64,000 bases of DNA from Mesotaenium endlicherianum. Taxonomy: Eukaryota. The stretch lies in contig WELA01001736.1 in the NCBI GenBank assembly GCA_009602735.1, positions 21,837-85,836 of the forward strand, in the 5' to 3' direction. Below, one piece after another: positions 6,997 to 42,666 of this stretch. The notes beneath the pieces were generated by a model, which saw only the letters and a list, made by a program, of their open reading frames with translations, was not told the DNA's origin and did no database searches. Made by a program: the position numbers and the translations under genes. The first letter of the stretch is position 1; every line of letters starts with the position of its first letter.

Positions 6997-7710
6997 TTTT
7001 AGCTCCATCAGGTCTTCACTTCTTTTTCTGCGCTGTACTTGTACCCATGTCGAGCAAGGCGTCGTTCTTGGCACTGTACATGCCCTTGAAGCTTTGGTGC
7101 CTGTGGCATGTGGTTGTGACGGGATGATTATGTACCAGTAGATGCTGTGAGGTTTCGACCAGATGAGTGCGCACCCAGACCTCTGGTGTGTATAGAAGTC
7201 CAGCATGCATCACCGAGTTGACATGAAGTTGCTGCTTTCATGGTATGTTCTCCATTCTGGCGTGATACGCAAGTTGCAATGACCCCCCTAATTAATAAAG
7301 GCAGGCCGTGTTGAGGCCTTCCATATCATGCTTACGCAGTTATTCTTGAAGAACCCCATGGGCCTGGCCGGGCAGCACGTGCAGCCAGTCCTTTCTCACT
7401 AATGTCTGGGGTCTACTTGTCACTTCGCATTCTTGTAGCCACTTATGAGCGTCAGCACGATATGACACATGCATTGACGTGAAAAGTGGTCACAGATACG
7501 GCATCGCAGAAGACGTGATAGTTGTAAAGTTTTTGACGGCCACTATGTGGTGCACATAGTCACCCCAGCTATATGAAACTCATGCTGGCAAACACATACT
7601 GAGAAATGCATTTCATATGAAGGTCAAAGCACAAAGCATAAGATACAAAATTTCTGCTCTCAGAGTGTTACATCAGTACAAGAGCAGTAACTAACTTATT
7701 TCCCAGCCCC

Positions 7711-8364
7711 CTACTTGAGGAGGGCGGAGATGATCTGCTTCACATTAAGCTTCCTAAGGTCGGTGTAGGTCTGTCCACAGCCCACGAAAATGATGGGTGC
7801 TCCTGATATGTACACCATGGACAGAGCTGCACCCACCTGCACACCGGAGGAAGAACAACAGAATAAGAACCACACCAACTCTTTAGACCAACAAGATTTA
7901 TCTGCAGCCAACGAGCTTGCACAGAGCTCGACGTACCTTGTCGTCTATGGTGTCAAACTTTGTGAGGAGGATGCCGTCGATGGCGTGCACGTCCGGCGTG
8001 GGGGACAGGTCCGCCAGCCGCTGGTTGAATTTGGACAGCTGGTCCACGGCATCGTTGCCCACCAGCGCCTCTCCCACAAACAGCACCTGCACCAACCACA
8101 ATACCATGCCAGGCTCCCCTGGCATCAGTCAGTCAGTCAGACAGGGCTCACAAAGCTTACCTTCTCACACCAGCTACCAGCGCTCCCCTGGAAGCCCCTC
8201 AGCTCCCTGCAAAGGGTGCAAGACGTCAGCAGCAGGTGGCTGGCTGGCATGCGACTGGGCCAATGTATGCCCTTCTCTCAAGGAGTACTAGGCAACTAAA
8301 TTGGTGCATAAAACTTCCAAATGTGCAGAAACAGTCAGAACCACATGACAGATGCTGGTTGCAG

Positions 8365-14331: not shown

Positions 14332-17300
14332 AGTGTCTCTCACGGTGAGTACCTCGTCCGACAAGCAACGTTTTAAACACCTTTTAATTGCATCAGGACG
14401 ATATTGTATCCATTCTGATATTCCTTTAATGCTGAACCTGATGAGTAACTTCATTTGGATGTCAAACAGGTCTTTGGGCCCACGCACTGACCGTGGAAGA
14501 CTATCAAGGTAATTAAGGTTTGTGCCTTTTGTTTGATGTTGCTACCATTGGGACGTAGAATAGACCAAGAAGACTATGGTTTACTATGGCCTTTTCTGGA
14601 AGTAGTGCAAGTAGTGATTCATCGATGCTCTGTAAGGAGTGAGATTAGGTAGCACTCCCTAGACTGGACCATGAAAAGAGAAGAAAATAACTTAGCAGTT
14701 ATCTCTTTCTTTCCTTTGTGCAGATTTGCTAAACAGAGGATGGAGGAGATCAGGGAAGTTTGTCTACAAGCCAGCAATGGACAAGACATGCTGTCCGCCT
14801 TATACAATAAGACTCAACTGCAAAGACTTTGTGGCCTCAAAAGAACAACGCCGGGTCATGAGCCGGATGGAAAGGTATGCCATTTGCATCCCACTGCGAC
14901 CATCAGTATCTGCCCTACTTCACACTCGCAAAACTCTTCATACCAGGATGTGACTTGTGGGGCCTTTTCATAGAGGAAGCCGGTCGTGGGCTGTTGGGTG
15001 CAAACCAAGCTCAAATTCTCATCAGGGAGTATATTGATTTGCCCAACACAGGTACCTCAAGGGAGTGCTGTCTCCGCCGGTGAAAGAGGGGCGCACGTCC
15101 ACTGCCGGTGACTTTGCTTCGGGGCAAGAGGAAGAGGGTGTCGGGGGTATGAATACGGTAAACAGCAAAGAATTTCTGCCTCTTACCAGAGCAGTGCATA
15201 AAAGGGAACATAGACAGGGAGAAAGCAGTCAGGCGCTGCAGCCTCCCACCAGAGCAGTGCATAGAGGGGAACATGGACAGGGAAACAGCAGTCAGGCGCT
15301 GCCTCAAGGAAGAACTTACGTTCTTCCTCCTGCATCCTTTCGGGACAATAGCGTCCTCAGTAAGCTGGTCTGCGAAGTGGATGCTGCAGTGAGGTTCTGC
15401 CAGGTAGTAGGTGAGCTCCCAGAGCATGCTGTGTTTGCGCCGGTGGCTGTGCGTGCCACGCCGGCAAAGGTGAGGGCACAGCTGAAGAAGAAGACAAAGA
15501 AGAAGAAGGAGAAGCAGCAGCAGCAGCAGCAGCAGAAGGAGGAGGAGGAGGAGGAGGTGGAGGAAGCAGACGTGGCCTACACGAGCAACGTAGCCTTCTC
15601 CATCTCGGGACACCTCAGGCGCCTGGCTGCGATGGACGCTTCTGCTTCTGCAACAGCAGGCAGACACGAGGCGGTAGCAGTAACAACAGCAGCAGCAGCG
15701 GCAGCAGCTCCATCAGGTAACTCTTGGGGGCCAGCAGAGGTTGCAACAGGCATGGACCACGCGGTGGAGGGGCAAGGCGAGAGCGAGGAGGCTGGTAGGG
15801 ACAGAGCTCGGTGCCAGAATGAGTTAGCCACGGCGACAAGAATGCCAGCTGATGGCGAGCAGCTTCCTCCTGGGAGTGGGAAGCCGCCAGAAGCGATGCA
15901 GCGGAGACGCGGCAGCTCACATGTAGAAGATGCAGCAGGAGGAGGAGGAGGAGGAGGAAGGGCAGGAGGAGCACATGCGGTGGCTGAGATGTTGGCGCGC
16001 AGGTTGCAGGGGGTGGGGGTCAGCCTACCTGGCGGTCTGAAAGCAGAAGCTCTCAATGGCCATCTCAATTTTGTATCGCATCCGCAACCACAACCGCAGC
16101 CGCAGGGCCAGGCAGTAGCCATGGCGGCTGTTGGTAGCAGCCCGCGAGGTCTTGCAGAAGCAGAGAGTAAGTCAACGGTAGGCTCTGATCCATTTGCTCC
16201 AGAGCATATGCAGAAGCTTCCACAGAAATGGGCAACTGATGCTCACAACACACATACCAAGGGGACATCTGGACTCCCTGATGACGCCCACAAGGGAGCA
16301 GCAGCCGCAGGAGGAGGTGAGGGATTCAGTGGTGCACCACAAGGCACAAACACGAGCATGCGCTCTTGCGGGGGGAAAGAAAAGCTACCCCGCCACCACC
16401 ACCACTCCCACCAACCCCACCACCCCCACACTAGAATGAAAGGAGGGGGGCAAGGACAGGAGGCAGCAGCAGCAACAGCAGGAGCAGCAGCAGCAGCAGA
16501 AGTAGGACTCGAGAGCTCCCTGGGAGGGCTTAAGCAGGAGGGCGGCAGCAGTGCCGCGAGCAGCCGGGGGGGCCCCACTGCTCCATCGAAGCCCAAGGAG
16601 GGGGCGACGCGCGAGCTGCAGGTCACGCTTGCCAGGTCAGCATTCGACGCGGAGGAGTTCCAGCTGTTCAAGAAGTACCAGGTGGCCGTGCACGGCGACA
16701 AGCCCGGCAGCGTGACGCCCGCGCACTACCGGCGCTTCCTCGTCGACTCCCCCCTCATCCCCGTGGCGCCGCGCGCCGATGGCTCCACGCCGCCCTGCGG
16801 CTTCGGGTCCTTCCATCAGCAGTACCGCGTGGACGGGCGCCTCATTGCGGTGGGCGTGGTGGACATCCTGCCCACGTGCCTGTCGAGCAAGTACTTGTTC
16901 TGGGACCCCGAGTATGCGTTCCTGTCGCCGGGGAAGTACTCGGCGCTGCAGGAGGTGGCGTGGGTGCGGGCGGCGGGGGGGGCGTGTGCGTCGCTGGCGT
17001 ACTATTACTTGGGGTACTACATCCACAACTGCCCCAAGATGAAGTACAAGGCGGCCTACGCGCCCTCCGAGCTCCTCTGCCCCCTCCGCTTCCAGTGAGT
17101 GCCTGACCCACACGCGCACGCACACACACACACACACATACGCACACACACCAACACACACACACACACATACACACGCACCCATGAATGCGTGTGTGCG
17201 TGCCTTCCTTTTCCTGCTCTTCTCGGCCTGCATGTCCTGCTTTGTTGTCGCGGGCTCTTGTCAGAAACGGAGGTGGATAAGTCCAATCGGACGAAGCGGA

Positions 17301-19393
17301 GCGCCAGTGGAGTCTGCTTCCCACGCTCACTCCAGCACTTGCTCTGCTTCGCTGTGAGCCCTGTGCTCTTTGTTTTCTGGCTAGCAACTGCTTTCTCTGC
17401 TGCAGACCTGCTTGTACCGCTAGTATCAAAGTGAGGGGGGAAGTGCCAGCCTGGGGCCATTGCACTGGAGCTTCTCCTGCACCTGCATGGGCACCGTGTG
17501 GTGCAGCTCAGGGAGGAGCGGAGGGAGGGAGACAGGCAGAGACAGGAAGACAGACAAAGACACGGACAAAGTGTGAAAGATAGAGACAGACAAAGAAAGA
17601 CAGAGGGATACAGGGGAGAGAGCCTCACAAGGGAAAGGGCTGGTGGACCGGGTGTTGCTGTCGCGGTACGATGATGGTGCAGGTGGGTGCCCTACTCGGT
17701 GGCAGAGCCCCTGCTGGACCGCACCTCTCTGGTGTTTCTCTCCAGCTTTCTCCCTCGCCCCCGCCAGACCGCCTCCATTTGCGCTACGACGACGGAGTCC
17801 AGCCCTCATGGTCACGGGGGGGCACCTTGGAGAAGGCAAGGCAGCCCTCAGAGGGGAGAGGGTCAGTTGCCGGCGGCGCAAGAGCTGCAAGAGGTGCTGG
17901 GCGATGCCAGGTGGCACAACAGGGCGGCGGCAGCGGGGGCAGAGGTTGCGGCGGGCCGGGGGGGGGCNNNNNNNNNNNNNNNNNNNNNNNNNNNNNNNNN
18001 NNNNNNNNNNNNNNNNNNNNNNNNNNNNNNNNNNNNNNNNNNNNNNNNNNNNNNNNNNNNNNNNNNNNNNNNNNNNNNNNNNNNNNNNNNNNNNNNNNNN
18101 NNNNNNNNNNNNNNNNNNNNNNNNNNNNNNNNNNNNNNNNNNNNNNNNNNNNNNNNNNNNNNNNNNNNNNNNNNNNNNNNNNNNNNNNNNNNNNNNNNNN
18201 NNNNNNNNNNNNNNNNNNNNNNNNNNNNNNNNNNNNNNNNNNNNNNNNNNNNNNNNNNNNNNNNNNNNNNNNNNNNNNNNNNNNNNNNNNNNNNNNNNNN
18301 NNNNNNNNNNNNNNNNNNNNNNNNNNNNNNNNNNNNNNNNNNNNNNNNNNNNNNNNNNNNNNNNNNNNNNNNNNNNNNNNNNNNNNNNNNNNNNNNNNNN
18401 NNNNNNNNNNNNNNNNNNNNNNNNNNNNNNNNNNNNNNNNNNNNNNNNNNNNNNNNNNNNNNNNNNNNNNNNNNNNNNNNNNNNNNNNNNNNNNNNNNNN
18501 NNNNNNNNNNNNNNNNNNNNNNNNNNNNNNNNNNNNNNNNNNNNNNNNNNNNNNNNNNNNNNNNNNNNNNNNNNNNNNNNNNNNNNNNNNNNNNNNNNNN
18601 NNNNNNNNNNNNNNNNNNNNNNNNNNNNNNNNNNNNNNNNNNNNGGCCGGGGGGGGGCGGGGGGGGCAGAGGGGAAGGGGAAGGACTTGGAGATGGTGGA
18701 GTCTGAAGATGAGGCTGCCGCGGCGGCAGCCTCGTCCTCGATGGACTTGGACTCGAAATGCGCAGGGAGGGGGAGGGGGCCACTTGGCAAGGGCCTGGGC
18801 CTGGAGGAGGAGCAGGTGCTGGAGGCGCGCGTCCGGGCCGCTGTCGGCAGCGTCCCTCTCCTTGTCAATGGCACCATCATGCGGTACCAGGTGCGGCCCT
18901 TCCCCTCTGCTCTAATCGTGGAGGTGCATGCGCATTTGCATTCAGGCAACTACCAGCTGTGCGCATGTGCAGTGGGACAGGGACGCCAGCGCTGCTACCG
19001 GCCTCGATCAATTATTGTTGTTCGCCTGTTCTGTCTCTGCTTGGCGCCCATGTGTTGGGGAGAGACGTCAATTTGTGGTACCATTGGTGCTTCGTGGCAA
19101 CTAAGAGGGAAGTCGAGCCCGCGCTGGTCTCTGCTCATCAGGAGGAGCTCATCTGAGTGTGGGGGGTAGTGCAAAGTGGGCCTTTCTCCTCGTGACTTCA
19201 TAGGTTGGTGTGGTCAGAGTTCACGATATTTTTTTAATTTTTCTTGTGCACGGGCTTGCGGTGGGTGCAGCTCGTGGTGGGCTTGCAGTGGGTCCGGCAA
19301 GAGGCACAGAAAGCCCTCACAGATCAGCTCAGCTCATACTTGCACCTTGTGGGCCCCGAGTTGGGCACCCGCCTAGCCTACTCGTTCTTGTAG
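14254..19393 (+). CDS. ATE1: Arginyl-tRNA--protein transferase (N-degron pathway arginyltransferase)
   Basis: Exons 14254-14344 (SVVEDSGQYTSSCGYCKS), 14470-14508 (LWAHALTVEDYQ), 14724-14874 (LLNRGWRRSGKFVYKPAMDKTCCPPYTIRL), 15052-17094 (...FQLFKKYQVAVH...GSFHQQYRVDGRLIAVGVVDILP...YYYLGYYIHNCPKMKYKAAYAPSELLCP), 17683-18890 spanning an N gap (WVPYSVAEPLL...LVNGTIMRYQ), and 19271-19393 (YLHLVGPELGTRLAYSFL*). Structure inside the gap is unknown. Confidence 0.93.
17109..17180. repeat. (CA)n-type compound microsatellite in an ATE1 intron
   Basis: Direct observation. Confidence 0.9.
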
Positions 19394-21376
19394 TGGATTG
19401 GGCGGAGTGATGAGACATCTGTACTGGGCAGGTGAATGGCCATAGTTCGTTGAAATACAGCTGGCGGTTGGCATGCGGAGGTTGTCGCTTTTGTGGAGAT
19501 GTTGAAGTTGCTGCTTTTCCAATTTTCTAGGTCAATAATCTTCCCGGGTGCTATGTGATTGAAAAGCTTAGGCATCTCGCTGGTGCAACTACCTAGCTTT
19601 AGAACACGAAGGTTGGGCGGTATCTTCTTACAGGTGACAGTGGGGACATTATGAAAGGCCTCTACGTGCCAGTGCTCTGGCAGGGTTGTCAGACGGGGTT
19701 ACTGGCGTTCTTCATTGCAAGGGATTGACATTGTGTAGATGCATGTAGGTTAGTGCTTCAGAGTGTTGCTCGAGAGTGAAATGGGGTTCAATATACAGCC
19801 AACTACATTACCTGACATGAGGTGCAGAATGGATTAAGTTGCAGGCAGGACGTCACAAGCATGTGAACTTGTTTTGGAGCAAGGATGTGCGGATTGTTGA
19901 TAGTGCAAGTGTATAGGAGGTTGCACAGCGTAGAAGTTGACAAGGGATCACATCCTGGTGACTTTAAGCAGTTCTTCGTGGTGACTTTGCACTCTGGATC
20001 TTGTTCCTTCACTGCTTGGCAACTACTCATTTTCCATGTATTAAAACAACTCTCCGGCACAACAGCTGACGACGACATGTCTTTTTTATTAACTGCGCTT
20101 GAGAGCTCCAGTGCACACAGTGGCCATGCTTCCTTACTCCACATACGCAGATGTATGAGCAGATATAAAGCTCATCAGCAAATCTTGGAGAGACAAAGAA
20201 GCACGAAACAACGAGGTCCAGCAATAAAGACACGTCAAAATATTGATACATGTAGCAGAAAAGCACATGAAACACCACGAGAAAGAGTGACACTTGCTTT
20301 CCACTTCAGTGACCTCAGAAATGACGCGTAAACATGATGCGCTGTGCATGGACACACACAGCAATATTGATAGATTTCTGCCCTGAAGATTACACTCTCA
20401 AAAGTCATACCAGAGCTGCATGCAAACAGACCCCCTGCTGCCTGATGGCCCCTTTTAATGGCAAGGCCATGCCCCACCTATCGGAGCAACCTGAAGCCTT
20501 TCTGTTGACTCCTTGGCATACTTCCTGCCCCCATAACATGTTCCCAAGGGCATTCTCTTCATCCGCTCTTTCGCCCCACTGCAAGTGATTCTGCAATGAT
20601 AGACTGGTGTCATACTTTAGAACAACAACTTTGACATTGATGCTACATGCACTGCGCTGAAATCACATAAAATAAAACGAGTTGGCGTACTCTGTTGCTC
20701 TATACCTACTTCTCATTGCTCCCTGCAGCCGAGAGACATCGGTGAAGTATCTCATTGTGTGTTAAAATCATCTGCCAGGCTACCACGAGAAGGGCTGGAG
20801 GCTGTGATTCTTGTGGCCTGGAGTGAGAGAGCAGGGTAGCAGGCTTTCAGGCGTAGGCTACACGTCAAGGACAGGGCTTCTTACCTACTCCCCCCCCCCT
20901 TCTGCTCTTTGATGCTACTGGAAACGAGAAAAGCACAAAGACTAACAAGCTACAAGGGGCATACACATGTCAAAATGGAGGAAAGTTGCTGTGCCAGAAT
21001 GCCACAATGCTGACCCCCAGCATCTGTCTGCTGAAAGGTTGCCAACAACAGTCAACAACGAGCTCACGCATGCAACGCACGTAGATGCATGAGTTCATGT
21101 ATGCGATGCAGATATACACATTTAATCAGCAACTAACACCAGTACTTGCCCTCCGAACGTCAATAATTAGCTGGCGTGAAAGTTGGAAGGTCGCTGAGGA
21201 TGATTCAACAAGTCACAACGATAGTGATGTTCTGAGATCCCAAACAGTTCCGCCTGTTCCTCTTGATGATGCATGGCTCCCACCCTCAGTGCTCCCTGTA
21301 GGCTGCCCCCCTACACGCCCACGCCGCTTCACACCATGCCGACTACAGGACGAGGGACCGGTGGCAGCAGCAGTGC

Positions 21377-22753
21377 GTGCGCGACGCGCAGGCTCTGGCC
21401 CGCCCAGTGCCCGAAGAGGCCTTGCAGGACGCGCGTGCGCGCTGGCGCACTTATCACGCACATTCTCGCATGGCTCGCCCGCAGCCGCTGCTCGAGCGCA
21501 TTCCTCAACTTACTCGCCACTACGCAGAGCTCGCAGTGGCGGCCCTCCGCATGGAGCCCCATCAGCACAGTTTGCTGCGCTCCTATCCACCGCCAGCGCA
21601 GGCCGGCGATCCCGCCCTGGGCTGTCGCCCCCTTCCTACGCCTATCTACATCGCACAGCTCGACGAGCGTCCCGGCGGCATTGTCCTTGTCGAGCTCTTC
21701 GCCGGCATTGCAACAGGGTTGCTGGCCACCCTGCAGGCTGGCATCCCCGTACGTCGGTACGTCTACGTGGACCCCGATGGCGAGGCGCAACATGTCGCCC
21801 GCAGGCAGATAACCTTATGCCACGAGCGTTTCCCAGAGCTCTTCCCTGAGTATGCCTTCTACCGTGCCCAGACTGACTGGCCCATGGACATCCGCGACAT
21901 TACAGCCGAGCACATCACGCGCCTCGGGCCCATCGACCTCATCATTGCTGGCTGGGAGTGCCAAGGCTTCTCCATTGCGGGACGGGGCGGCGCGCTCGGT
22001 GACCCGCGTACGGCCTTGTTCTGGCACCTGCTCCGCGTCCTCAACATGGTTGAGGACCGCCAGCCGCCACACACGCTCGCCTGGGTGTTGGAGAACGTGG
22101 TTGTCCGCCACGATTCTCGGCCCAACGTCAGCGCCGACTTTTTCCTCTGCAGCAGCTACGTCGGTCGTGAGGCAGTCATCGACGCCGCTCAGATTGGTTC
22201 CTTCGCGCATCGCGTGCGCGCCTACTTCACCAACCTGGCCATGCCAGGCACGCTTGAGGCATTAGCGGCCGCACATCCACGCCACACGCGCAACGTTGAC
22301 TCCATCCTCGACGTGGCGCGCCTGGCCCAGCGCGTGGTCGCCCTTCCGCATCCTTCTCAGGCCCAGTGTGAGGTCCTCCGCGACGTCACGCGGGCGCTTC
22401 CTACGTTCGTGAGTCGCTACGACAGCGCGGCCTACGTGGGCGACCAGCGCGGCATGATCATTGACCTCGAGACTGGCATGTTCCAACAACCCCGTGCCGT
22501 GGAGATGGAGCGTGCGATGGGCTTCCCTCCGCACCTCACACAGGTGGACGGCATCACCGAGGTCAACCGCGTGCGTCTCCTTGGCCAGGCTATTGATGCC
22601 AACGTCTTGACGTGGCTTCTCTTGCAGACACAAGCCCTGACTCCCCTTTACGCCCAGGCTCGTGATCCTGAGATGGACCAGTCCTATGACGCCATTGATC
22701 GCGATTCCGACGGCGACGGTCGCGCCCCGCCTGGTACAACCTGGCATTCCTAG
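21377..22753 (+). CDS. C5 cytosine-specific DNA methyltransferase domain (DNMT3/Dcm-like) carried by retrotransposon A
   Basis: Ordered C5-MTase motifs: I VLVELFAGI (~21683-21709), II YVYVDPD, III DIRDI, IV IDLIIAGWECQGFSIAG (catalytic Cys at 21959), VI WVLENV (22091), VIII HRVRAYFTN (22208), IX EMERAMGFP, X RVRLLGQAID (~22570-22597). Confidence 0.93.
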   Translation: MRDAQALARPVPEEALQDARARWRTYHAHSRMARPQPLLERIPQLTRHYAELAVAALRMEPHQHSLLRSYPPPAQAGDPALGCRPLPTPIYIAQLDERPGGIVLVELFAGIATGLLATLQAGIPVRRYVYVDPDGEAQHVARRQITLCHERFPELFPEYAFYRAQTDWPMDIRDITAEHITRLGPIDLIIAGWECQGFSIAGRGGALGDPRTALFWHLLRVLNMVEDRQPPHTLAWVLENVVVRHDSRPNVSADFFLCSSYVGREAVIDAAQIGSFAHRVRAYFTNLAMPGTLEALAAAHPRHTRNVDSILDVARLAQRVVALPHPSQAQCEVLRDVTRALPTFVSRYDSAAYVGDQRGMIIDLETGMFQQPRAVEMERAMGFPPHLTQVDGITEVNRVRLLGQAIDANVLTWLLLQTQALTPLYAQARDPEMDQSYDAIDRDSDGDGRAPPGTTWHS

Positions 22754-22918
22754 CGTGAGGGTCCAGCTTCCCAGCAGCCGCCTGCGCCTCGTCCTGGTCC
22801 TCGTTTTGGTTCGCTGGGGGGGGGCAGGAGGAGACAGGAGTCCTCACAGCGACCCAGGGAGTTTCGTTCTCCATTTCTTTTTCCACGCTCTCCGCCGCCT
22901 ACAGGTGGTGCAGGGCGC

Positions 22919-24609
22919 ATGGCAGCAGCTGACGAGGAGAGGGCACCCGAGGCAGGTCAAGTGCAGCCAGCTGCAGGACAGGTGACGCCTGCAGACACAC
23001 AGATCGCGCCAGCAGCAGGGCAGGAGGCGCCAGCCGCAGCGCAAGAGCCACCACCGGTTGTTCCTACTTGGAAGCTGGGGGGGACTCTCACTAGGGCACA
23101 GGCTGCTCAGCTAACGGCATTGCTGGATGCACGGCGCAGTGCCAGCTTTGCCAGCGGCATGCACGATCTTGGGCGCTACAAAGGCAACCCTATGAGGATA
23201 TCCCTCCAGACAGACGTGCCCATCTTCCAGAAGCGCTATCGCTACAGCCGCTTTGAGGACGACCTGATCAGCACGCAGACAGGCAAGCTAGAGGAGTGTC
23301 AGCTCATTCGTGAGTCTGCCTCCACCTACGCTGCGCCCACAGTCATGCCAACTAAGAAGGACGCCTCAGGCAACTGGTCTGAGAAGAGGATGTGCGGTGA
23401 CTATCGTAAGCTTAACGAGGTCACTGAGCAGGACAGATACCCTATGCCGACCCCTGACGAGATCTTCGACGACATCGGCGCTTGTACTTGGTTCTCGGTG
23501 CTGGATTTGAGGCAGGGCTTCAACCAGATACCCACTGCGGAGGAGGACCAGCATAAGACGGCTTTTGGGGATCGCAGCGTCTCTACGAGTGGAGGGTTAT
23601 GCCCTTCGGCTTAAAGAATGCTCCTGCCACCTTCCAGCGAGTCATGGATAAGGAGCTGGCAGGGCTCCCCTTTGCTCGGTGCTACATCGATGATGTGCTC
23701 GACTTCGGTGAGACGTTTGAGGAGCACGTGGCATATATCACTACAGTTCTGGACCGCTTGGAGGCCGTTGGGCTCAAGTGTCATCCAGGCAAGTGCACCT
23801 TTGGGACCCGGGAGGTGGAGTACCTCGGGCATCTTCTGTCTTCCAATGGTTTGGCTCCTCAGCTGGCCAAGATCTCGGCCATCACAGGCATCCCGCCGCC
23901 GACCGACCTCTCGCAGTTGAGGGCCTTTCTTGGCATCGCCAACTACTATCGCCACTTTGTGCCTGGGTGCAGCGAGCTGGCCAAGCCGCTCAACGACTTG
24001 CTACGCAAGGGCGTTGCCTACGTGTGGGGACCAGAGCAGCAGGCAGCGTTTGACAAGCTCAAGGAGCTGTTGGTGAGCGCCCCAGTACTACGGCGGCCTG
24101 ACAATTAGAAGCCCTTCATCCTCCACACCGACTGGTCGCAGGCAGGGCTTGGAGCAGTGCTGGTGCAGGAGCATGACGGCTTCGAGCATGTGGTGGCGTA
24201 CGCCAGCCACAGCAACAACCGTGCCGAGGGCAACTACGGCTCCTATGAGGGAGAGTGCCTGGCAGCGGTGTGGGCGATGGTGCATTTCAGGCACTATCTC
24301 TACGGCACCCACTTCCGCTTGGTCACCGACCATCAGCCACTCAATAGGCTCATGACGTCGGAGCGCCTGACAGGCAAGTACGCACGGTGGGCACTCACCT
24401 TGCAGGAGTACACCTTTGACGTGCACCATCGTCCAAGGTCGACGAACCTGGACGCTGACGGCCTCAGCTGCAACCCGCTGCCCTCTTTGCAAGACCTTAC
24501 AGTAGCACGCCACGATGAGGATGAGCCAGTGGCCTGGCACGCGGCGGCATTCCTGGCCTTCACCGTTGACGGCGACGTGCGGCCCGCAGGGCTCACTAGC
24601 CTAGACTAA
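22919..24609 (+). pseudogene. Element A reverse transcriptase and RNase H (disrupted)
   Basis: RMCGDYRKLN, RYPMPTPDEIF, FSVLDLRQGFNQI, HKTAF, a 1-nt frameshift at ~23566, MPFGLKNAPATFQ, CYIDD, LRAFLGIANYYR, an in-frame TAG at 24106-24108, then FILHTDWS..GLGAVL, VAYAS, ECLAAVW, LVTDHQPL and ADGLS. Confidence 0.93.
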
Positions 24610-25807
24610 GGTTGTCGCCGACGTCGTCAGCAGCTGCACACTTTGCGACCGGGTGCGCTTGAGCTTCACAGCCCGCACCGTCGCTCTCAGCTCTCTCCCT
24701 ATTCAGGGGCTATTCTACAGGTGGTCGCTCGACTTGGCTGGGGAGCTGCCCAAGTCTCGCCGAGGCAACCTCTATGTCTTGGTGATGATCGAGCACATGT
24801 CCAAGTGGATCGAGCTTGTGCCGTTGCCCAGCAAGGCCAGTGAGGGGATTGCCCAGGCATTCCTTGATCATGTCCTTAGCCGCTTTGGCGGTTGCCCTGA
24901 GGTCCTCACCGACCAAGGCAAAGAGTTCCAGGCCAGCTTTCAAAAGCTGCTAGAGCGCTCGATGATCGACCACCGCACCACCTCCCGCGACCATCCCCAG
25001 GCTGACGGCCTTGCAGAGCGCATGGTGCAAACCGTCAAGCTTGGGCTGCGGAAGTACTTCCTGGCCCACGACAGCACCCACTGGGACGACGCCCTCCCAT
25101 GGTTGGCTATGGAGTACAGGTTCATTAAGCAGGCCTCCTTGGCCTCGCATTCTCCCTACTTCCTTCTCTACGGCCGACAGCCAGTCCTGCCCGCAGCAGC
25201 CAGGACCGTGGCCGAGAACGTTTTGGACTTGGACAGTCCCGAGACGTGGAGCACTCTTATCGGGCAGCGTGCACTGCTCTTTCGGCGCCTGATGCCCATG
25301 GCCATGGACAACCTCAGCATTGCTCAGCACCGCGACACACTGAGGTATGCCGTGACCCGTGGAGGAGCCTATCGCCCGCGAGTGTTGCAATTCTCCGCAG
25401 GTGACTTCGTGTACCTGCGACGCCAAACAAAGAACACCCTCAACACCAGCAGCTCGCCCGTCATCCTACGCGTCAAGCGTGTCTTGGCGTCAGGAGTTCT
25501 AGAGCTGGAAGGCGCAGATGGCCGTCTTCACAAGGACCACACAAAGAATTGTGGACCATGCCACCTTCCTAACCTTGACATGCAGGTTCGTCCCCGCGAC
25601 GCGAGGCCGCCCAAGGACTGGGCGTGCCAGATTTGCCACAGCCCCGGCCAGGAGGCCAGCATGCTAATCTGCGACAGCTGCAACCTCGGCTTCCACATCG
25701 GTTGCCTAAACCCGCCGCTGGCCCGCATGCCAGCTGGCGACTGGTTTTGTAGCGACTGCACTGCTTTAGCTCTAGACAGCGATCACAGCCCATCAGCTGG
25801 TGGCTGA
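24610..25807 (+). CDS. Element A integrase (N-terminal HH of the zinc finger missing) with a C-terminal PHD finger
   Basis: CTLC, WSLDLAG (D), VLTDQGKEF (D), HPQADGLAERMV (E), a degenerate GPY/F-SH3 region, then a C4HC3 motif CQIC..MLICDSCNLGFHIGCLNPPL..PAGDWFCSDC at 25625-25759. Confidence 0.92.
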
Positions 25808-25822
25808 GAGCTGGGGGGGGAA

Positions 25823-25956
25823 TTAAAATATTTGACGAGTGATTATCGTTTGGCTATAAAGCCACATGTATTATAGACTTCATTGCAGCAAAGCCTGCTT
25901 GCATATTATGCATTGCTTGTGTCATTGATACGCACCCGACCTCCTACCGCACGACA
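25823..25956 (+). repeat. Short (134 bp) 3' LTR of element A
   Basis: Follows the PPT and ends ...cgacCA-like (gcacgaca). A near-identical copy at 26977-27110 begins TG; this copy has TT. Confidence 0.7.
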
Positions 25957-25958
25957 GC

Positions 25959-26974
25959 TGTCATGATTTATTAGGTCGAGGTTGACGTACAAGACCAAGC
26001 TCTACGTGTGTGAACCATCAACCTAGGAAGACCAAACTTTGCATTGAATTTACGCATCCATATGTTGACCTTCTCTAGATTTTCGAGTCACCAAAGTGTA
26101 GCGCGTCGAAGCATCTTCCGAATGGCACCGGTTTCGCGTCATTTGGTTAATTATTGAGCGAGATAGACGCGATCTAGTCCGCACTCCTTTCGGCACCTAG
26201 CGGAATCACACCAAATGGCCAACATGTGACTCAATGCACCCAAAGGTGACAATGTTGACTATTCGTGACCCCAAGGACCCCTAGCTTTGTGCGCACAAAT
26301 CCGCGAGCCCCTTAGATTACATAAGTCTTGCATTTCCATAGTATAAGTGCATCATTGAGGCTATTACTTGGTGACTGCATCACCTACTTCTAGAGGAAGC
26401 TTCCTCAAGTTTTAGATTCACTTTTGAGGCCCTATCTAGGTAGAACTACCCAAGGTAAGCTCCACCAATGAGAGACACTTAGCATATTCTACGTGCTTTG
26501 CTTTGATTGGTTTGAGTTATGCTTAGCCTATAGGAGTGCTAGTACATGCCTTGTACACATTAGTGGACATAGGAGAGCCTCCTAGAGTGACTACATGCAT
26601 TGGATCCGCCGCATACGACGCCGGGTTTTCAGGAGTATAAGTGCTAGAGATGTCCCTAGAGGAACATCTTTTTAGAAGTCCCATTATGCCAGTTGTAAGT
26701 CACACAGATTATCAGTAAAGCTTACACTTTTTATCTCTTGTGTTTTCAGGACCACTTAGTCTCTCTCTTGTGAAGAGCAAGCCTTGCTGGCGTCCAGTCA
26801 CTAGAAGAACTTCACAAGTGGTGAGCAAAGTCACAACTTATACCCCCTGCCATAGGACTACTCTTGAAGATCATGATGTGCTTCTAGTGATCTTTTGGGC
26901 CAGTCTTCATTAGTTGTTTTCCTACCAGATTACAGTCTTGAGGTGCTCACTCTGGAGAGTACACACTCCTTACT
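25959..26974. mobile_element. Unrelated ~1-kb LTR-like fragment (solo or truncated LTR)
   Basis: Starts TGTCATG, non-coding, contains TATAAG boxes and resembles the other LTRs here in composition. No partner copy or TSD found. Confidence 0.45.
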
Positions 26975-26976
26975 AA

Positions 26977-27110
26977 TGAAAACATTTGACGCGTGACTAT
27001 CGTTTGGCTGTAAAGCCACATGTATTATAGACTTCATTGCAGCAAAGCCTGCTTGCATATTATGCATTGCTTGTGTCATTGATACGCACCCGACCTCCTA
27101 CCGCACGACA
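26977..27110 (+). repeat. Second copy of the element-A short LTR, followed by a PBS-like TGG
   Basis: TGAAAACATTTGACG...CCGCACGACA with about 5 mismatches to 25823-25956, followed immediately by tggccaaccgtgaagctc. Confidence 0.75.
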
Positions 27111-27583
27111 TGGCCAACCGTGAAGCTCAGTGGCGTGGATGGAAGCCATAGTTGAGGAAGAATGGGGACTCCTGGGTAGAGGCCTGCGTCGTGTTGTTGT
27201 AGGCGAACTCCAAGGGGGTCAAGTACATGTCCCAGTCTTGCTCTAGAGTAGACACGTAGGCCTTTAGAAAGGTCTTTAGGGTACGATTTGTACGCTCAAA
27301 TTGCCCATCCGATTGCGGGTGGTAGGCAGTGGACATATCCTGCGTCGTACCCAAGTTCTTGAAGAGATTTTTCCAAAAATAACTTGTGAATCTTGGATCT
27401 CTATCCGACACAATTCTTGATGGTAGTCCATGGAGTCGGAAGATGTTGTCAAAGATGAGTCTTGCAAGTTGTGGTGCTGTAGCCTTAGTCGTCGTGGGAA
27501 TAAACTGAGCCATCTTGGTAACTCTGTCCACCACCGTGATGGCCTCGATGGGTCACGGGCAGGCCCACGATAAGATTCATTGA

Positions 27584-30500
27584 TGAAAGGGGCCGAGTGC
27601 CCTAGTGCAAGCGTAGTAACTCACGAGAAAAGGAACTAGTTGCAATCATACTAAAGAGTGCAGCGGCATATTGCTAAGAAAGCTTAGGAAAATTACTTGA
27701 CATTTTTAGTGGTAAGAAAGTGCTCACAAATGGTGTAAGATGAAAGGCCTTGTCATTACAAACCCGTAGAAATTTACAGAAATGAAAACTGATAAGAAAC
27801 AAAGAAGTTATGCCTATTTATAATTTTTTGCCTAAGTGCTCCTCCCTAGGAGGAAGCTACGGATTTTCCCAAGTGTTTGTCAAATCGTCCCTTCCAGAAT
27901 ATTCGTGAGTAAGCCGGATCAGTCTAATTTGACGTGTCGGGCCGAATTGACGTCCACATACATGCATCGACATTACTAGAATATTCTATCTTAGACGCGC
28001 TAGGCTAAACCGAAACTTCTAGGTAAATCGACCTAGTCGGCACTCCACGTCTGCCGAACTTATGTGAAGGTTCGAGTTCACTCTAACGGGCCAGATCGCT
28101 CGACGCTGTCGATCAATCCCACGGTCGCGCTCACCGCGAATAAGGACAGTCGTCAACCGACCTCAAAACTAGTTAAACTTTGGAAATCCGTAACTCTCTC
28201 AATACTTGACCAAATTCGATAAACTTTATATCAAAATGACCACAAAAATGCACTCTATACTACTATACAAGCAAAACATACTTTCATGAAACTCAAAAAT
28301 GCACTTTATAAACCTATGACCTTACATCATCCCCCTCCTCAAGATGCGACGTCCTCGACGCATTTTGCAGATAACGCCTCAACTTACTCGTACGATGAGT
28401 CAAGTTGACCTCTGGCTCCCAAGTGTTGTCGTTTGCATGGTAGCCTTTTGACTTGACCAGATACTCTTGAACAAGTCGTTGACCTCGCTTGACTCGTCGA
28501 TCGCCGACAATCGCCTCCACTTTATACTCCAATATATCATCGATCTCGACCGGTGGTGACGGTACAGGTAGGCGTCCTGGATGTCCTTCATTCGGGTCAA
28601 CGTATGGCCGCAAACAACTGACATGGAACACATCATGGATACGCCAGCCTGAAGGAAGTTCCAACTTGTAGGTCACTGGATTCACCTCCTTGAGCACTAG
28701 AAAGGGACCTGTAAACCGTGCCCGCAATTTCCTCTTGCCTGTGAAAGGTAGATTCTCTGTTGACAAGAGTACTTTGTCACCCACATGGTATGTCACTTTC
28801 CTCCTGTGCTTGTTGGCATACTTGACCTGTTCCTCCTGTGCCTTTCGAATACACGTCTTCGCCATATCCCAAGTCTTGGCCATCTGCTCCATAAAAACTT
28901 GTGTAGTAGGAACCTGAGTCTCCTTGGCCTTCTCCAACAAGATGTTCCCTGGATGATATACTTCTCTTCCATAAACCATAGCGAATGGTGACTGCTTGGT
29001 CGATCCCTGCATGCTGTTGTTGTAGGCAAACTCCAACCCTGGTAGCTTCTTGTCCCACTCCGAAGGTTCTTCCATAGGGAAACTCCTGAGCACCTCTTGC
29101 AGAGTTTCGTTGAGCCTCTCACTCTGCCCGTCTGTCTGAGGATGATAGGAAGTGCTCATACTCAACTTGGTCTCCATCAAAGTAAACAATGACCGCCAAA
29201 AGTTGCTAGTAAACCGCGGATCCCGGCCTAAAACAATCATCTTCGGCAACCCATGTAGCTTGAAGATATGATCAAAGAATAGCCGTGCCACATCTGCTGC
29301 CGTAGAAGTCTCCTTCATGGGAATGAAGTGAGCCATCTTGCTGAGTCTATCAGACACAACCCATACTGCATCGTGCCCTTGACCACTGACTGGTAACGAT
29401 GTGATGAAGTCCATAGCAATCTGCTCCCAAGGATACTCTGGAATAGGCAGGGGCTGCAATGTACCTCCCTTCTTTTGATTTGGTGTCTTGTTTCTCTGGC
29501 ACGCATCGCAACTCCTGATCCACTCCTCGATGTCCTTGTCCATATTTCTCCAGTAGTATTCCCGCTTCAGCACGCTTGCCGTCTTCTCGCTTCCAAAGTG
29601 TCCAGCATATAAGCAATCATGATGCTCCGCAAGTAGTAAGTCTCGTAGCTCCTTGATGTCAGGTACCACCACTCTCTTGGAATCACCAAGATACCATATG
29701 CCGTCCTTCTTCTGCATACTCGAGTTGGACTCAGCTGCTCCACCATCAGCAAACTGTGGGTCCTCCTCATAACCTCTCCGAAGCTTCTCCTTGAAGTCCA
29801 TACTCTCTTTGATGACCGAGACAGTTGCAAGGTCACACCTTGTGGATAAAGCATCTGCAGGGTTGATCTTCCCAGGTAAATACTCAATCTTGTGGTCGAA
29901 CTGTTGCAGAAATTCCATCCACCTTGCCTGTCTTGGTGTCAACGTTGGTTGCGTCATAATCTTCTCCAAGCTCTTGTGGTCGGTCTTGATGAACACCTTC
30001 CGACCGTCCACATAACATCGCCAAATCCTCAAAGCCTGGATAATAGCCAACATGTCCCGCTCGTGTGCTGCATAGTTTCGCTCAGCACGACTCAACTTCC
30101 TGCTCTCATATGCCACAGGCTGCAATCCTTTGCCCTGGTCCTGAAGAAGAATGGCTCCCACTGCGAAATTTGATGCGTCCGTGATGATGGTGGAAGGAAG
30201 CTCTGGACTTGCAATTGCCAACACGAGTGCCTGTGTCAGCAGCTCCTTAATCTTCTCAAATGCTTGCTGCTCCTTGTCACCCCACAGCCACTTCTCCTGC
30301 TTCTTCAACATGTCCGTGAGCGGTGCACACACCTTGGCAAATCCTTGAATGAAACGTCGATAATAATTTGCCATGCCGAGGAAACTCCTGAGTTGATGAA
30401 TATATCGCTTTGATACCAGATGAAAGGGGCAGAGTGCCCTAGTGAAAGCGTAGTAACTCACGAGGAAAAGAACTAGTTGCGATCCTACTAAAGAGTGCAG

Positions 30501-31164
30501 CGGCATATTGCTAAGAAAGCTTAGGAAAATTACTTGACATTTTTAGTGGTAAGAAACTGCTCACAAATGGTGTAAGATGAAAGGCCTTGTCATTACAAAC
30601 CCGTAAAAATTTACAGAAGTGAAAACTGATAAGAATCAAAGAAGTTATGCCTATTTATAATTTTCTGCCTAAGTGCTCCTCCCTAGGAGGAAGCTACAGA
30701 TTTTCCCAAGTGTTCGTCGAATCGTCCCTTCCAGAATATTCGTGAGTAAGCCAGATCAGTCTAATCTGACGTGTCGGGCCAAATTGACGTCCGCATACAT
30801 GCATCGACATTACTAGAATATTCTATCTTAGACGCGCTAGGCTAAACCGAAACTCCTAGGTAAATCGACCTAGTCGGCACTCCGCGTCAGCCGAACTTAC
30901 GTGAAGGTTCGAGTTCACACTAACGGGCCAGATCGCTCGACGCTGTCGGTCAGTCCGACGGTCGCGCTCACCGCGGATTAAGGACAGTCGTCAACCGACC
31001 TCAAAACTAATTAAACTTCGGAAATCCATAACTCTCTCAATACTTGACCAAATTTGATGAACTTTATATCAAAATGACCACAAAAATGCACTCTATACTA
31101 CTAAACAATCATAACATACTTTCATGAAACTCAAAAATGCACTTTATAAACCTATGACCTTACA
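27584..31164 (-). mobile_element. Element D: internally deleted chromovirus with two LTRs, inserted in the integrase of B
   Basis: LTRs 27584-28326 and 30421-31164 (TG...CA, roughly 95% identical by eye). 5-bp TSD ATTGA at 27579-27583 and 31165-31169. PBS TGGTATCAAAGC at 30407-30418. PPT gaggagggggatga at 28327-28340. Confidence 0.95.
28314..30506 (-). CDS. Element D truncated pol: RT connection, RNase H, integrase, chromodomain (730-aa open frame)
   Basis: [39 protein letters not shown]...[32 protein letters not shown], and YKVEAIV...[14 protein letters not shown]. Confidence 0.9.
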
Positions 31165-33039
31165 ATTGAGAGGTCCGTCCATTGCCTTTTCGGGATTGGT
31201 AGTGGTTGGAGGAGTCCTCCCGCCTTTTGTGATGATGGCGTGACTCTTTGGCATGTGTCACAGCTCTTGCAGTCCTCCTTGACTTGCTTAGACATGCCTA
31301 GCCAGCAATAAGTCCTGGTTAAAACGCCCGTAATATTTAGGATCCCAAAGTGTCCTTCAAAAGGATTGTCGTGTGCTTCTCGTAGAAGCAAGAGCCGGAG
31401 GTCTAAGTCATAAGGAACACAACTTTGGCCCGTGTCTTGCCTCACCCAATAATTGCCTTTTTGCTTCTTGTATGGGTCCAAGGCTGCTTCTCTGTTCTTG
31501 TAGTAAGGGTCTCTTTTATAAGCGGCTGAACATTGAGCTTCCAGATCTGTTTTCAGGGATGTCATCATTGCGTTTAATTGCAGTCTTGAGAGGGGGTCAG
31601 ACGGGTTTGTCTTGCCGGGCTGGTACTGAATTGTGATGTTGTATTGTTGCAAGTATCCACTCCATCTTGCTTGTCTCCGTGAGAGATACGGGTGCGTCTG
31701 GAGGTGCTTCAACGCCTCGTGGTCCGTAGTGACCAGCACCTTGCGTCCTTCAACGTAGCAGCGCCAAACCTTCAAGGCATGTACAATCGCCAACGCCTCT
31801 CACTCTGTGGTTGTATAATTTTGCTCGACTGGATATAGCTTCCTTGACTTGTAGGCTTTTGTTGCAGTCCCTTGCCTTGGTCTTGAAGTAAGAGTGCTCT
31901 TATTGCATAGGAAGATGCATCGGTGATGACGTGGAAGGGCCAATCTGCGTTTGGACTTGGGAGTGTGAGCACCGGGGATATCGTCAATCTTTGCTTCAGT
32001 TGTTGAAATGCTTCCTCCTCTTTCTTGGTCCGAACGTATGGCTTGTCCTTCTTGAGTTGATCCGTGAGGGGGCCTGCTATGTGCGAGAAGCTCTGGATGA
32101 ATCTCCTGTACCAATTGGTAAATTCCAAGAATGATTGGAGTTCTTTCTTGGTCGTGGGGATTGGCCATTCCTCCACCACCGTGGTCTTCTTGGGGTCCAT
32201 CTTGATGCCATCAGCAGTCACGTTTAGACCTAGGAACTCCACTTCTTGTTTGGCAAACTCGCACTTTAACTCCTTTGCAAATAGCTTGTTTTGCTTCAAA
32301 TTCAAAGGACTTTTTTCAAGTGTCTTGCATGCTCTTCAAAGGTCTTGCTATAGATAAGGATGTCATCGATGAATACCACCACAAATCTGTCCAACATGGG
32401 CTGAAATTTGGTGTTCATCATAGTCATGAAAGTTGCTGGCGCGTTGGTGAGTCCCAATGGCAGGACCATGAACTCAAAATGACATATCTTGTCCTAAACG
32501 CCGTTTTCTCTATGTCAGGTTCAGCAATGCGAATCTGGTGGTAGCCGCTTCTGAAGTCCACCTTCGTGAAGTTCTTGGCTCCAACCAACCGGTCCATAAG
32601 CTCATCCATGCGCGGCAGCGAGTATCTGGATATTCTAGATTGCGCGCAAAATACAGATTCTTGAAGTGATGTCATTCTTGATCTTGATAGTACCGTCTCT
32701 CCAATCAACTTGGGGGTTGTGCTTGTGACCAAGGCGTCCCTAGGATGATGTCGTACTTGCCCAATTGCATGGGAGAAAACACTACTGTATCCTTGAAGGA
32801 CTTGATAGAGAGTGACAAGGGGTACGACTTCTTGGAAGGGGTAGCATAGAAGAATCCGTCGGGCATCATAATCTCCTTGTCGTGGTCAAGAGTTCGCATA
32901 GTAATACCGTGCTTGGTGGCAAATTTGCAACGATGAAGTTGCCTTGAGCTCCGCTATCCACCAAGATGTGGACCTTCTCTCCTCCAAGGTAACCTCTCAA
33001 ACTCATTGGGGCTGGAACGTCGTCTTCAACGAGGGTCTC

Positions 33040-36000
33040 TGAAATGAATCGACTTACCAAATAGGCGATTAACAATTAATAAAGATCTTTATATCAGCAA
33101 GTAATCTTTATGGATTTTCCGTTTCTTGGTCAAACGGCAAAAGGACAACACACTAGCAGTGAACAATACTCGTAAGTCAAATGCGAGTAAACTAGCATCA
33201 ATAATGCAATCAGTAAAACTCATACATAAGCAAGGTTCGAAGACTGTGCGTATCAATAGCTTCTCGCCTTGGATTCAGATCTCTCAGTAAGCTGTACAAG
33301 AGAGTTGGCCTCGTTCCCGAATGCCGAACTCGAGAGCAATGCCTAGCATATGTACATGGAATGAGTTTATTGTTCAACGGCCAGTGCGATGGCACCGCCT
33401 ACCCGGGAGTTAACCACGTTGGTAGGACCTCGGTTAACCAAATCCACCGCCATCTCCCATCATCCCGAATCGCCATCCATCATAGGGATGTCATCTGGCC
33501 ATTCATCTAGCATATCACACTTAGATGTATATTGAGGCAGTTTGCTGCTACCGAGTACGGAAGTCAGCTGGCTGTCAAAGAATGTGTCAGCAAGCTGACT
33601 TAAGTTGACTTCAGCCTGCTGCTTCCGGCTGAGTCATTAAACTGATTATTTTATAAGTCCAGCAGACTCAATATTAACTAAAGTTCAGCAGGCTGAACAT
33701 GATTAACTATTAGATTTAAATGAATATTATATCTACTAATATACTGATTCATTACAATTCCTCCAACTTAACTTGTTGTCGCCTCGACAACATTAAACTG
33801 CAGAAGTGTTAAATAAGGGAACTGAACCTGACCAGCCTCCCTCACTGACTGCCCTTTAGCCTGTCACCTAGGGGGTTGTTCCTGGGGCTCCAGGATCAAG
33901 AGATCTGGACCTAGATCTGGACAGCCCTCTAGTTCTGTCAGCTGGCCTTCTAAAGAATCCCGTTTGTTCTAAAGTTGGACCTCGAGGGGAATAAAGGATG
34001 GTAGCCTGCTCTTCACCCACTTGGGTGTTGATCCCCACATAGACAGGCATTCCAGTAGGATGCTGAAATACATTGGCAAGAGGTACATGTCCCGGAGCGA
34101 AGGGGGAGGCCGCCATACCTCTGGCCACCCCGCGTGGCCCTCTTCTGAAACCCCTGTCCTCTGGGGATTTCTGCCTGTGTCTGCTGCAAATTACAGTCAG
34201 ATCAGCTTCTTCCCCTGCTTGGGCAGGTGGGCTGGGAGAGCGAGTGCGGGGTCCAATTGCCTTCTGGTATTGCTCCATTGTCCCCCTGGCTTCTTCTGCC
34301 TTGCGCTTCTTGTCCTCCTTTTGTGTGGTGGGAGCCATTCTGCACATGTAACCAGGGCACAAGTTAGTAGGATATCGAGCTTTATCCTAGAAATTGCAGG
34401 AAGGGAGTAAGTTCGTATCAGTATGGTATATTCGTTCCTGTTTATCTTACAAGGTGCTTGCTAGGAGTTGACGTAGTTGCGGTGCGCTAGACATAAACAT
34501 ATGAATGTGTTTACAGGTGTGTTAAGTGATGTATGGCTGTGCGAGGCCCTTTTTCCTTTCGCTACAGGTGCTTTATGTGGGCCAGGCTGGCCCCTCCGTC
34601 ACTATGTTGACACTTGGGGTTCACATAACTGTCCCTAACTGTCCCTTTTTCGCTCTCGCACACTAACTGTCTTATATTTTCCCCTCTAACTTAAATGGAG
34701 ACAGGATTGCCTGTCACCTGCCCGTGTCAACTGAAATTACTGTTAAGGAGGTGCTCCAACCGCCCGAAGGTGGAATTGTTTCAACGCCCATTTGGCATTA
34801 GTCAAATAATCTTTAAATTCCTAAGTGTCCCCAGAGGCATCGTAACCCTTCCATCAAATGAGGTACTTCATGACATATTTAGAGGATCGACGGACCGAGC
34901 GAGCGTCTAAAATCTCCTCAACCTCATATTTCTCAGGGTCGCCGTCCAGGACAGCGGGGATCGGTCCCGGTTGGACAGTTAACCGACCTGTGAACAGTGT
35001 ATCACCTTTGATGTAGGGTTCCAGGAAGGAGACATTAAAGACCGGATGACCCTTGTATTCAGCTGACAAGTTCAATTTGTAAGCGTTCTGACCGACACGA
35101 CGCACCACCAAATATGGACCGACCCAGACAGGGCCAAGCTTTTTCTTGACCACACCAGGGAGGTACAGGTGCTGAGAATGTAGTTTGACCAAATCGCCTT
35201 TAGAAAAGGTCAGTTCGCGACGGTGCTGATTAGCGTACTTTTGTTGGTTTTCTTGGGCTCTGTGCAGATTCTGCTGGAATTCTGATTGGGTGTCAGCAAA
35301 GTCCTGAGTTAACTGGAGGGAGAGCGGATTGTCAATCCTTTCAAGGTGAGTTAAAGACTCCCCTAGGACATCTAAAGGAGACTTAGGGACTCTACCCAGG
35401 CTTAGTTCAAAAGGAGTCTTGCCCGTTGACGCGTGCGCCGCACTGTTGACCGCAAACTGGATTTGAGGTAACAGGTCATCCCAATTATCTTGTTTTTGGT
35501 TAATATAAGCTCTCAGTACTTCTTCCAGAACTTGGTTAGTTCTCTCAGTCTGCCCATCAGTCTGAGGTTGTTTGTTGTGCTGAGCAGCTGTGTGACTCCC
35601 GTTAAAGTCCTCCAGAACTTAGAGGTAAATTTTGAGTCTCTGTCTGAGATTATATTAGAGGATAGCCCATGTTGGCATACTACATGGTTGTATAACTGTC
35701 TCGCTGTTTCGAGTGCAGTTACTTTGACAATTGTGGGGATGAAAATGACCATTTTTGTCAGTTTATCCACGACTATTAGTATCGAATCATGCCCATTGGC
35801 AGTTCATGGTAGTGTGACCACCCAGTCCATGGATATCATTTCCCAGCGATCAGCTGGGATGGGCAGCGGTTGTAAGAGGCCCCCCGGTGGTGTGTGCCTT
35901 GACTTATTCTTTTGACACTGGTCACAGGACTTAACGTATTTCAAGACCTCCCGAGGTAATCCCTCCCAATGATAATGTTTTGCCAGTTTGCCAACAGTTT

Positions 36001-42160: not shown

Positions 42161-42666
42161 TGTAGTGAAACAGATAGATAAAGTACTCAGTTAAGTAAAA
42201 TACTTTATCTATTCAGGACAAGGATCTTCGAACACAAGTGGTAGCTTCTGGGAAGAGAGATGGCTTCTTGAAAGTTAATATATTTCTGGAATTTGGCAAG
42301 TACATGAGTGATTCTTGAATGCCTTTCTATGTTCTAGCTCTTGCCAATATACTTGCTATATAAGTAGTTTCTAGGAAGGTGCATGTTGATGTGTTGACAC
42401 CCAACACATCCCAAAACTTGCCACCTCTTTCTAGAATAATGTACACATGTCCTTTTGACCTAAAAATGGCACATTTGACTATTGCCACATGGAGTTCTTC
42501 TAAGTCCTTCCTCTAACTTTGAAAATGCCTTAGAAGGTTCAAAGGATATGAACCAAGTCACTAGAGTATTTATTCACACTTGAATCCACACAGTACTACT
42601 ATGAAGTATATTCAAAAGCATCAAAAGAAAAGCAAACTACTATATATCAAAACTCAAATCACTACA
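42161..42666 (-). repeat. 5' LTR of element B (506 bp)
   Basis: Perfect 8-bp terminal inverted repeats TGTAGTGA...TCACTACA, adjacent to the PBS. Confidence 0.88.

Follow-up and report, generated by a model that had tools for sequence, protein, structure and literature searches.

The present analysis concerns a 64,000-nucleotide stretch of DNA from Mesotaenium endlicherianum (assembly GCA_009602735.1, contig WELA01001736.1, positions 21,837 to 85,836 of the forward strand), hereafter the window, by whose own numbering all coordinates are given. From about 21316 to 27110, the window holds one copy, dead and truncated at its 5' end, of a Ty3/Gypsy retrotransposon present in many copies, where a C5 cytosine methyltransferase (DNMT) domain related to DNMT3 is followed by the reverse transcriptase (RT), RNase H (RH), integrase (IN), and a PHD finger, and then by 3' repeats in the order B-A-B; in active copies of this element, the methyltransferase would be packaged and would likely methylate CG, either on freshly made cDNA or where the element inserts. 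An earlier examination of the same DNA, hereafter the sequence-only reading, had proposed a Gypsy element carrying its own C5 DNA methyltransferase inside the pol polyprotein, and its individual claims are considered below together with the results bearing on them.

Domain Organisation of the Element and of its Methyltransferase

The RT-RNase H-integrase order, the Ty3-like RT and the DDE integrase place the window element within Ty3/Gypsy. Pfam profile searches match PF00145, RVT_1 (in two frames), RT_RNaseH, rve, and PHD, and thus all the profiles by which the sequence-only reading had proposed to verify itself (PF00145, RT, rve, and PHD), the match of PF00145 to the DNMT scoring 42.8 bits (E = 6e-11) for a cut-off of 22. 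The complete and ordered set of C5-methyltransferase motifs it had described ahead of a Gypsy RT is confirmed, the canonical order comprising ELFAGI (21692), YVYVD (21758), DIRDI (21887), AGWECQGFS (with the catalytic Cys, within 21935-21973), LENV (22088), HRVRAYF (22208), EMERAMGFP (22502), and LLGQAI (22577). By sequence, the nearest solved structures are those of DNMT3A/B/C (1.6e-16 for DNMT3A, versus 1e-5 for DNMT2, 1e-5 for DRM and ~0.007 for M.HhaI), and, with a structure model of the domain (pLDDT 84.5), DNMT3 structures make up all 36 Foldseek matches listed. As judged from sequence and predicted fold, the methyltransferase domain is DNMT3-related and unrearranged. Across 17 aligned DNMT sequences, the columns of the Cys, ENV, and RxR motifs show little or no variation, and the catalytic Cys pattern is retained in 126 of 134 further homologues. 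Among 20 listed differences in the DNMT open reading frame (ORF), drawn from the 40 best-supported of 1028 rows, third codon positions hold 15 (p = 1.7e-4). Such a codon-position bias, together with the conserved catalytic residues, indicates that the DNMT is under selection.

In frame +2, no stop interrupts the sequence between 21302 and the TAG at 22751-22753, nor between 22754 and 23614, a second stretch that includes the ATG at 22919 (55 codons past the TAG), in agreement with the claim that the DNMT and RT ORFs share one frame with this single TAG between them. The start attributed to the DNMT ORF at 21377 did not hold: this codon is a GTG and no true start, because the element is cut at about 21316-21346. 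The single-copy contig of read run X1 stops at 21346, where the summed depth, 63 up to there, climbs above 20,000, and profiles of the protease (PR) and GAG find no match within 17001-21700.

Regarding the state of the copy, the sequence-only reading rightly considered it dead from its frameshift, stops and 5' truncation, the reading frame being shifted near 23560 and stopped at 24106, and everything 5' of about 21316 being lost; it overlooked an internal deletion of ~100 codons at 24604-24606. Loose ends flank the latter on both sides in runs X1 and X5, and the distance from RH to the integrase core is ~70 codons in the window versus 160-173 in eight relatives.

Repetition in the Genome and Relatives of the Element

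Four read runs were aligned to the window at 80% likeness, and in run X1 the summed depth, which is no copy number, reaches 14,520-41,597 over the DNMT, the linker and the start of the RT, the flank standing at 63. Repetition is clearly of the same order for the DNMT and the RT, and the DNMT is multi-copy, not the single-copy chance neighbour that would have spoken against the sequence-only reading. The reads matching the element come from runs under three organism labels.

At the protein level, relatives form 140 clusters at 50% identity (E up to 1e-30). P0010 is an intact Gag-PR-DNMT-RT-RH-IN-PHD protein of 2300 amino acids, collinear with the pieces of the window element and 42-59% identical to them. 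Two domain orders can be discriminated, (i) type I, where the DNMT precedes the RT (PR-DNMT-RT polyproteins), and (ii) type II, where the same DNMT lies between RNase H and integrase. In a set of 81 proteins, which contains cluster duplicates and fragments, the DNMT stands before the RT in 10, all of them intact PR-DNMT-RT polyproteins, and after the RT or RNase H in 54, the other 17 being unclassed. Among 80 metagenome loci, 40 are of type I with a downstream RT, 27 of type II and 13 unclear; in the 40 type I loci, DNMT and RT are in the same frame without a stop (11), in the same frame with stops (12) or frameshifted (17). A further 134 representatives comprise 75 of type II, 7 fused to an RT, 12 ending after PR-DNMT and 40 with the DNMT only. 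Named type II proteins are P0044, P0071, P0080 (Haematococcus lacustris) and P0055 (Hariotina reticulata), two chlorophyte genera; the best Atlas cluster for the window element is mostly Streptophyta, which makes a streptophyte host likely. As a side observation, the type II polyprotein P0075 (3602 amino acids) also has a precomputed match to PF00293 (NUDIX).

In a quick version of the DNMT tree (74 rows, five duplicate or fragment rows having been excluded beforehand), type II forms one clade with a support of 99. The split between types I and II recurs with a support of 94 when the tree is built from RT-RH, and of 100/100 when it is built from RT-RH-IN (17 rows), and the RT-RH-IN of the window falls with the PR-DNMT-RT type (100/100), where it has no close relative (at most 61% identity in pol and at most 44% in the DNMT). 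Distances in the DNMT and RT trees run in parallel, with a Spearman coefficient of 0.63 for a permutation maximum of 0.28 (n = 57). The equal repetition of DNMT and RT, the same domain order in intact relatives and these parallel trees leave next to no probability for a chance juxtaposition or a misassembly, i.e., a host DNMT3 fragment beside an ordinary Gypsy element, even if a stop codon separates DNMT and RT and no single contig covers the whole stretch; the DNMT repetition, the fused proteins and the same-order loci refute it. For the two domain orders, the simplest reading of the sequence comparisons is a single DNMT capture followed by relocation within Pol, the alternative consisting of two captures of related DNMTs. 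A wider scenario, tentative and on the unlikely side when taken as a whole, would place the window element in one ancient Gypsy clade of streptophytes and chlorophytes, with a single capture of DNMT3, a later change of its place in Pol (PR-DNMT-RT versus RH-DNMT-IN), a Gag-like abundance through a leaky stop in some lineages and a replication that needs no tRNA primer, both cDNA ends being rebuilt from an internal, palindromic CA-NN-TG junction.

The TAG and the Linker between Methyltransferase and Reverse Transcriptase

With respect to the TAG of the window, we lean slightly towards a nonsense mutation private to this copy, which bears three other lesions, so that one additional stop is unremarkable. 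It could otherwise be a leaky stop at the level of the family, where Gag-PR-DNMT would be made in bulk and RT-RH-IN-PHD via readthrough only, the particle then containing far more DNMT than RT molecules; this we regard as a genuine possibility, of somewhat less than even chance. The element at locus L043, otherwise an intact Gag-PR-DNMT-RT-RH-IN-PHD element and the one with the highest RT-RH-IN identity to the window (61%), argues for it, in that its single frame is open from 976 to 8227 save for one in-frame TAG (L043:5083) between DNMT and RT, followed by CAG TTA. Locus L040 shares this stop, its codon position and its context (L040:2081). CAR YYA after UAG is the readthrough signal of the tobacco mosaic virus (PMC2754532), and the stop of the L043/L040 sub-lineage, in its UAG-CAR-YYA context, is a candidate for programmed readthrough. 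Furthermore, P0014, P0022 and the cluster of P0013 terminate 117-123 residues past the DNMT, the closest DNMT matches, P0119 and P0120, terminate after it as well, and the linker is of 597 nt in the window, near the 579 nt of L043. The TAG of the window, however, is at codon 44 past the DNMT rather than 119 and is followed by CGT GAG, a sense codon stands in the window where L043 has its stop (read by eye), the tree does not join the window and L043 as sisters, and the hairpin 3' of the TAG is ordinary once composition is considered (z -0.89), even though less than 1% of 145 coding windows reach as good a fold.

The linker itself is probably translated, and thus neither an intron nor an untranslated region, because a relative in run X5 keeps eight codons between TAG and ATG with four synonymous changes (read by eye); the same comparison counts eight differences in 10 codons, six at third positions and four synonymous, which is a small sample. 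A translated linker is compatible with both a private nonsense mutation and readthrough. The synonymous codon conservation in the X5 relative also led to an intron or untranslated spacer from the TAG to the ATG at 22919, which a pyrimidine tract ending in CAG had suggested, being set aside. A conserved GGG motif 3' of the DNMT was rejected as well, with 14 of 71 after it versus 9 of 70 before. From the sequence-only proposal of a DNMT within the pol polyprotein, a Gypsy element with its own C5 methyltransferase between protease and RT stands, and intact single-ORF relatives exist; the TAG as a former sense codon is not established.

Repeats, Termini and Replication

The end assigned to the element at 25956 had to be abandoned, as it extends to 27110 with B-A-B repeats, the order at the 3' end being G8, B1 (ending with CA), GC, A (starting with TG), and B2 (ending with CA) (Table 1). 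Other genomic copies start at 25959 and some exit A at 26974 into non-B sequence. The repeats are of a split kind (A...B-A-B) and do not form two identical long terminal repeats (LTRs), the 5' one followed by a tRNA primer-binding site. Concerning the termini, the 3' CA and the A-initial TG are present in the window copy, the 5' end of which is lost. A second and decayed A repeat at 44380-43377 aligns end to end with the 3' A (score of 275 versus a shuffle maximum of 41). The region 43134-44380 on the minus strand can be described as a much older related remnant, with an A sharing the same first 13 bases, then gag-like sequence and no B.

Among the 43 loci with enough flank, five, all of one family, exhibit the full A-coding-B-A-B layout; exact 4-bp target duplications occur in three of these five complete relatives and a TGG-type tRNA primer site after A1 in none of the five. 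By self-comparison, no type II locus has the full repeat layout, split repeats being indicated there solely by the junction of L001. At the B/A junction, the window carries GACA-NN-TGTC, as do 4 of the 46 loci that were scanned, namely L001 (type II), L006, L043, and L070, and four further near-copies of L006 have the junction with one mismatch; this B/A junction is conserved in four independent lineages. No significant RNA structure was found at the junction (z -1.41), no complement to the start of A (9-12 nt) inside the window copy, and no tRNA gene in the window. Read from either side, the internal CA-NN-TG junction probably gives an unprocessed cDNA end (CA plus two bases); it would take the place of the tRNA primer site, and both ends could be regenerated from it without a tRNA primer. 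With the same arrangement in all five complete copies, a linear intermediate fits better than the random opening of a circle.

Proposed Function of the Methyltransferase

In the proposed mechanism, a single reading frame would yield both DNMT and RT, by simple fusion or via a leaky stop, and the protease would release the DNMT from the polyprotein; packaged in the particle, the DNMT would act on double-stranded cDNA inside the particle or the pre-integration complex, and the PHD finger would steer integration. By analogy with SymbioDIRS-Dnmt3, and because the enzyme would be made with the particle proteins, it most likely acts on newly made cDNA or on the site of insertion, with the likely benefit that the new copy arrives resembling the CG-methylated DNA of the host.

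Several observations weigh against this reading of the window element. The linker has 199 codons in the window versus 82-133 in intact fused proteins, the window DNMT is a long branch in the quick DNMT tree (1.39), which makes its placement weak, and one poly(A) RNA run, about 6% of it read, holds no read on the DNMT or on the start of the RT. Moreover, the DNMT region shows no CpG depletion (observed/expected ratio of 1.07, versus 0.68-0.77 in the rest of pol and 0.42-0.63 in neighbouring Gypsy pieces), and, when the retrotransposon DNMT of Klebsormidium was assayed in yeast, no methylation resulted, an outcome its authors call inconclusive (PMC5890265). The latter two would also suit a DNMT kept for a non-catalytic or non-cDNA role, e.g., DNA binding in the integration complex or self-damping to the benefit of the host, self-restraint being named as a possibility by de Mendoza et al. 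(PMC5890265); such a role appears unlikely considering the above-mentioned retention of the catalytic Cys pattern and the near-invariant Cys, ENV, and RxR columns, and considering that Dnmt3 domains from retrotransposons of a dinoflagellate (Symbiodinium) were shown to carry out de novo CG methylation in yeast (PMC5890265).

Relation to Known Systems

Retrotransposons bearing an enzyme normally used for silencing them constitute a known puzzle, and the Gypsy-Dnmt3 design itself is already known from KnitGypsy-Dnmt3 of Klebsormidium nitens, a Gypsy element that combines DIRS-like repeats with a Dnmt3 inside its Pol (de Mendoza et al., 2018; PMC5890265). As such, the suggestion of the sequence-only reading that the family may be new is right insofar as the window locus represents a further high-copy family; DNMT3 in a Gypsy Pol with the same split repeats has its precedent in KnitGypsy-Dnmt3. 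Common to the window element and KnitGypsy-Dnmt3 are an unrearranged Dnmt3-related domain with Gypsy domains, conserved key residues and purifying selection, as well as the DIRS-like A-coding-B-A-B layout (3' B-A-B only in the window). They differ in sequence family, the comparison being made by description as no Klebsormidium-labelled sequence is among the matches, and in the C-terminal PHD of the window element, the word PHD being absent from the text available for KnitGypsy-Dnmt3, where no mention of a junction palindrome, of chlorophyte relatives or of a readthrough stop was found either (PMC5890265). SymbioDIRS-Dnmt3 of Symbiodinium (PMC5890265) shares with the window element and its relatives a Dnmt3 in Pol, two domain orders and split repeats, but is a DIRS element with a tyrosine recombinase, whereas the window element has a DDE integrase and its relatives 4-bp target duplications. 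EpiLTRs/DAM-LTRs (bioRxiv 10.64898/2026.05.21.726589) are likewise Gypsy-like with DNA methyltransferases, some of them in chlorophytes; unlike in the window element, their DNMT is sister to DNMT4 and accompanied by DAM and a chromodomain. Gypsy-7a_cRei of Chlamydomonas is, similarly to the window element, a green-algal Gypsy Gag-Pol with a PHD finger, yet its listed domains include no methyltransferase (PMC9940879).

As for taxonomic distribution, Gypsy-DNMT3 is given for streptophytes only (PMC12344493; bioRxiv 10.64898/2026.05.21.726589), and the sole mention of green algae comes in a statement that pools adenine and cytosine methylases (PMC6338049). A recent survey scored a host DNMT3 in 1 of 12 chlorophyte species, and the "orphan" DNMTs it scored for Dunaliella, Coccomyxa, and Chlorella (PMC12344493) may be such Gypsy-Dnmt3 elements. 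Literature searches returned no report of a chlorophyte Gypsy-Dnmt3, of the B/A junction or of the readthrough stop, which subscription journals, figures or preprint supplements could nonetheless hold; the chlorophyte sister clade, the conserved junction and the readthrough sub-lineage apparently are new to that extent. The Gypsy-Dnmt3 literature found rests on one alga and the inconclusive assay, and the relatives indicate that this kind of element is far more widespread, chlorophytes included. The intact natural relatives offer material for testing activity, readthrough and split repeats with a DDE integrase.

Feature Coordinates and Neighbourhood

Table 1. Positions of the parts of the retrotransposon copy within the window.
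Feature	Position	Strand	Remarks
Protease-DNMT spacer remnant, 5'-truncated	21316..21673	+	Left boundary approximate; gag, protease and 5' A repeat gone
DNMT3-like C5 cytosine methyltransferase domain, uninterrupted	21674..22621	+	Catalytic Cys, ENV, and RxR motifs present; PF00145, sequence and fold comparison
DNMT-RT linker, 199 codons, same frame	22622..23218	+	One TAG at 22751-22753
Ty3/Gypsy reverse transcriptase	23219..23826	+	YIDD at 23683; frameshift near 23560; RVT_1 in two frames
RNase H	24112..24477	+	In-frame TAG 24106-24108 ahead of it; RT_RNaseH profile
Internal deletion junction	24604..24606	+	~100 codons lost (tether and most of the H2C2 zinc finger)
DDE integrase core	24686..25135	+	rve 1.2e-13
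C-terminal PHD finger	25622..25759	+	PF00628 8e-12; ORF end 25807
G8 tract, polypurine-tract-like	25813..25820	+	Abuts B1; G-run at equivalent place in relatives
Repeat B1, CA end	25821..25956	+	96% identity with 26975-27110
Palindromic B/A junction GACA-GC-TGTC	25953..25962	+	
Repeat A, 3' copy, TG start	25959..26974	+	Other copies start at 25959
Repeat B2, CA end	26975..27110	+	Element 3' end; abuts a piece of another Gypsy element

Beyond the element, the region 27110-42200 consists of nested and decayed Gypsy elements on the minus strand with no DNMT match, and includes, at 28314-30542, a Gypsy element with RH, integrase, and a chromodomain. On either side of the repeat cluster lie host-like genes, at 15038-17098, 46571-47470 and 55182-56630, which, judged from their translations, would be an arginyl-transferase-like exon, a SWIM/RING-like ORF and an anion-transporter-like ORF, respectively.

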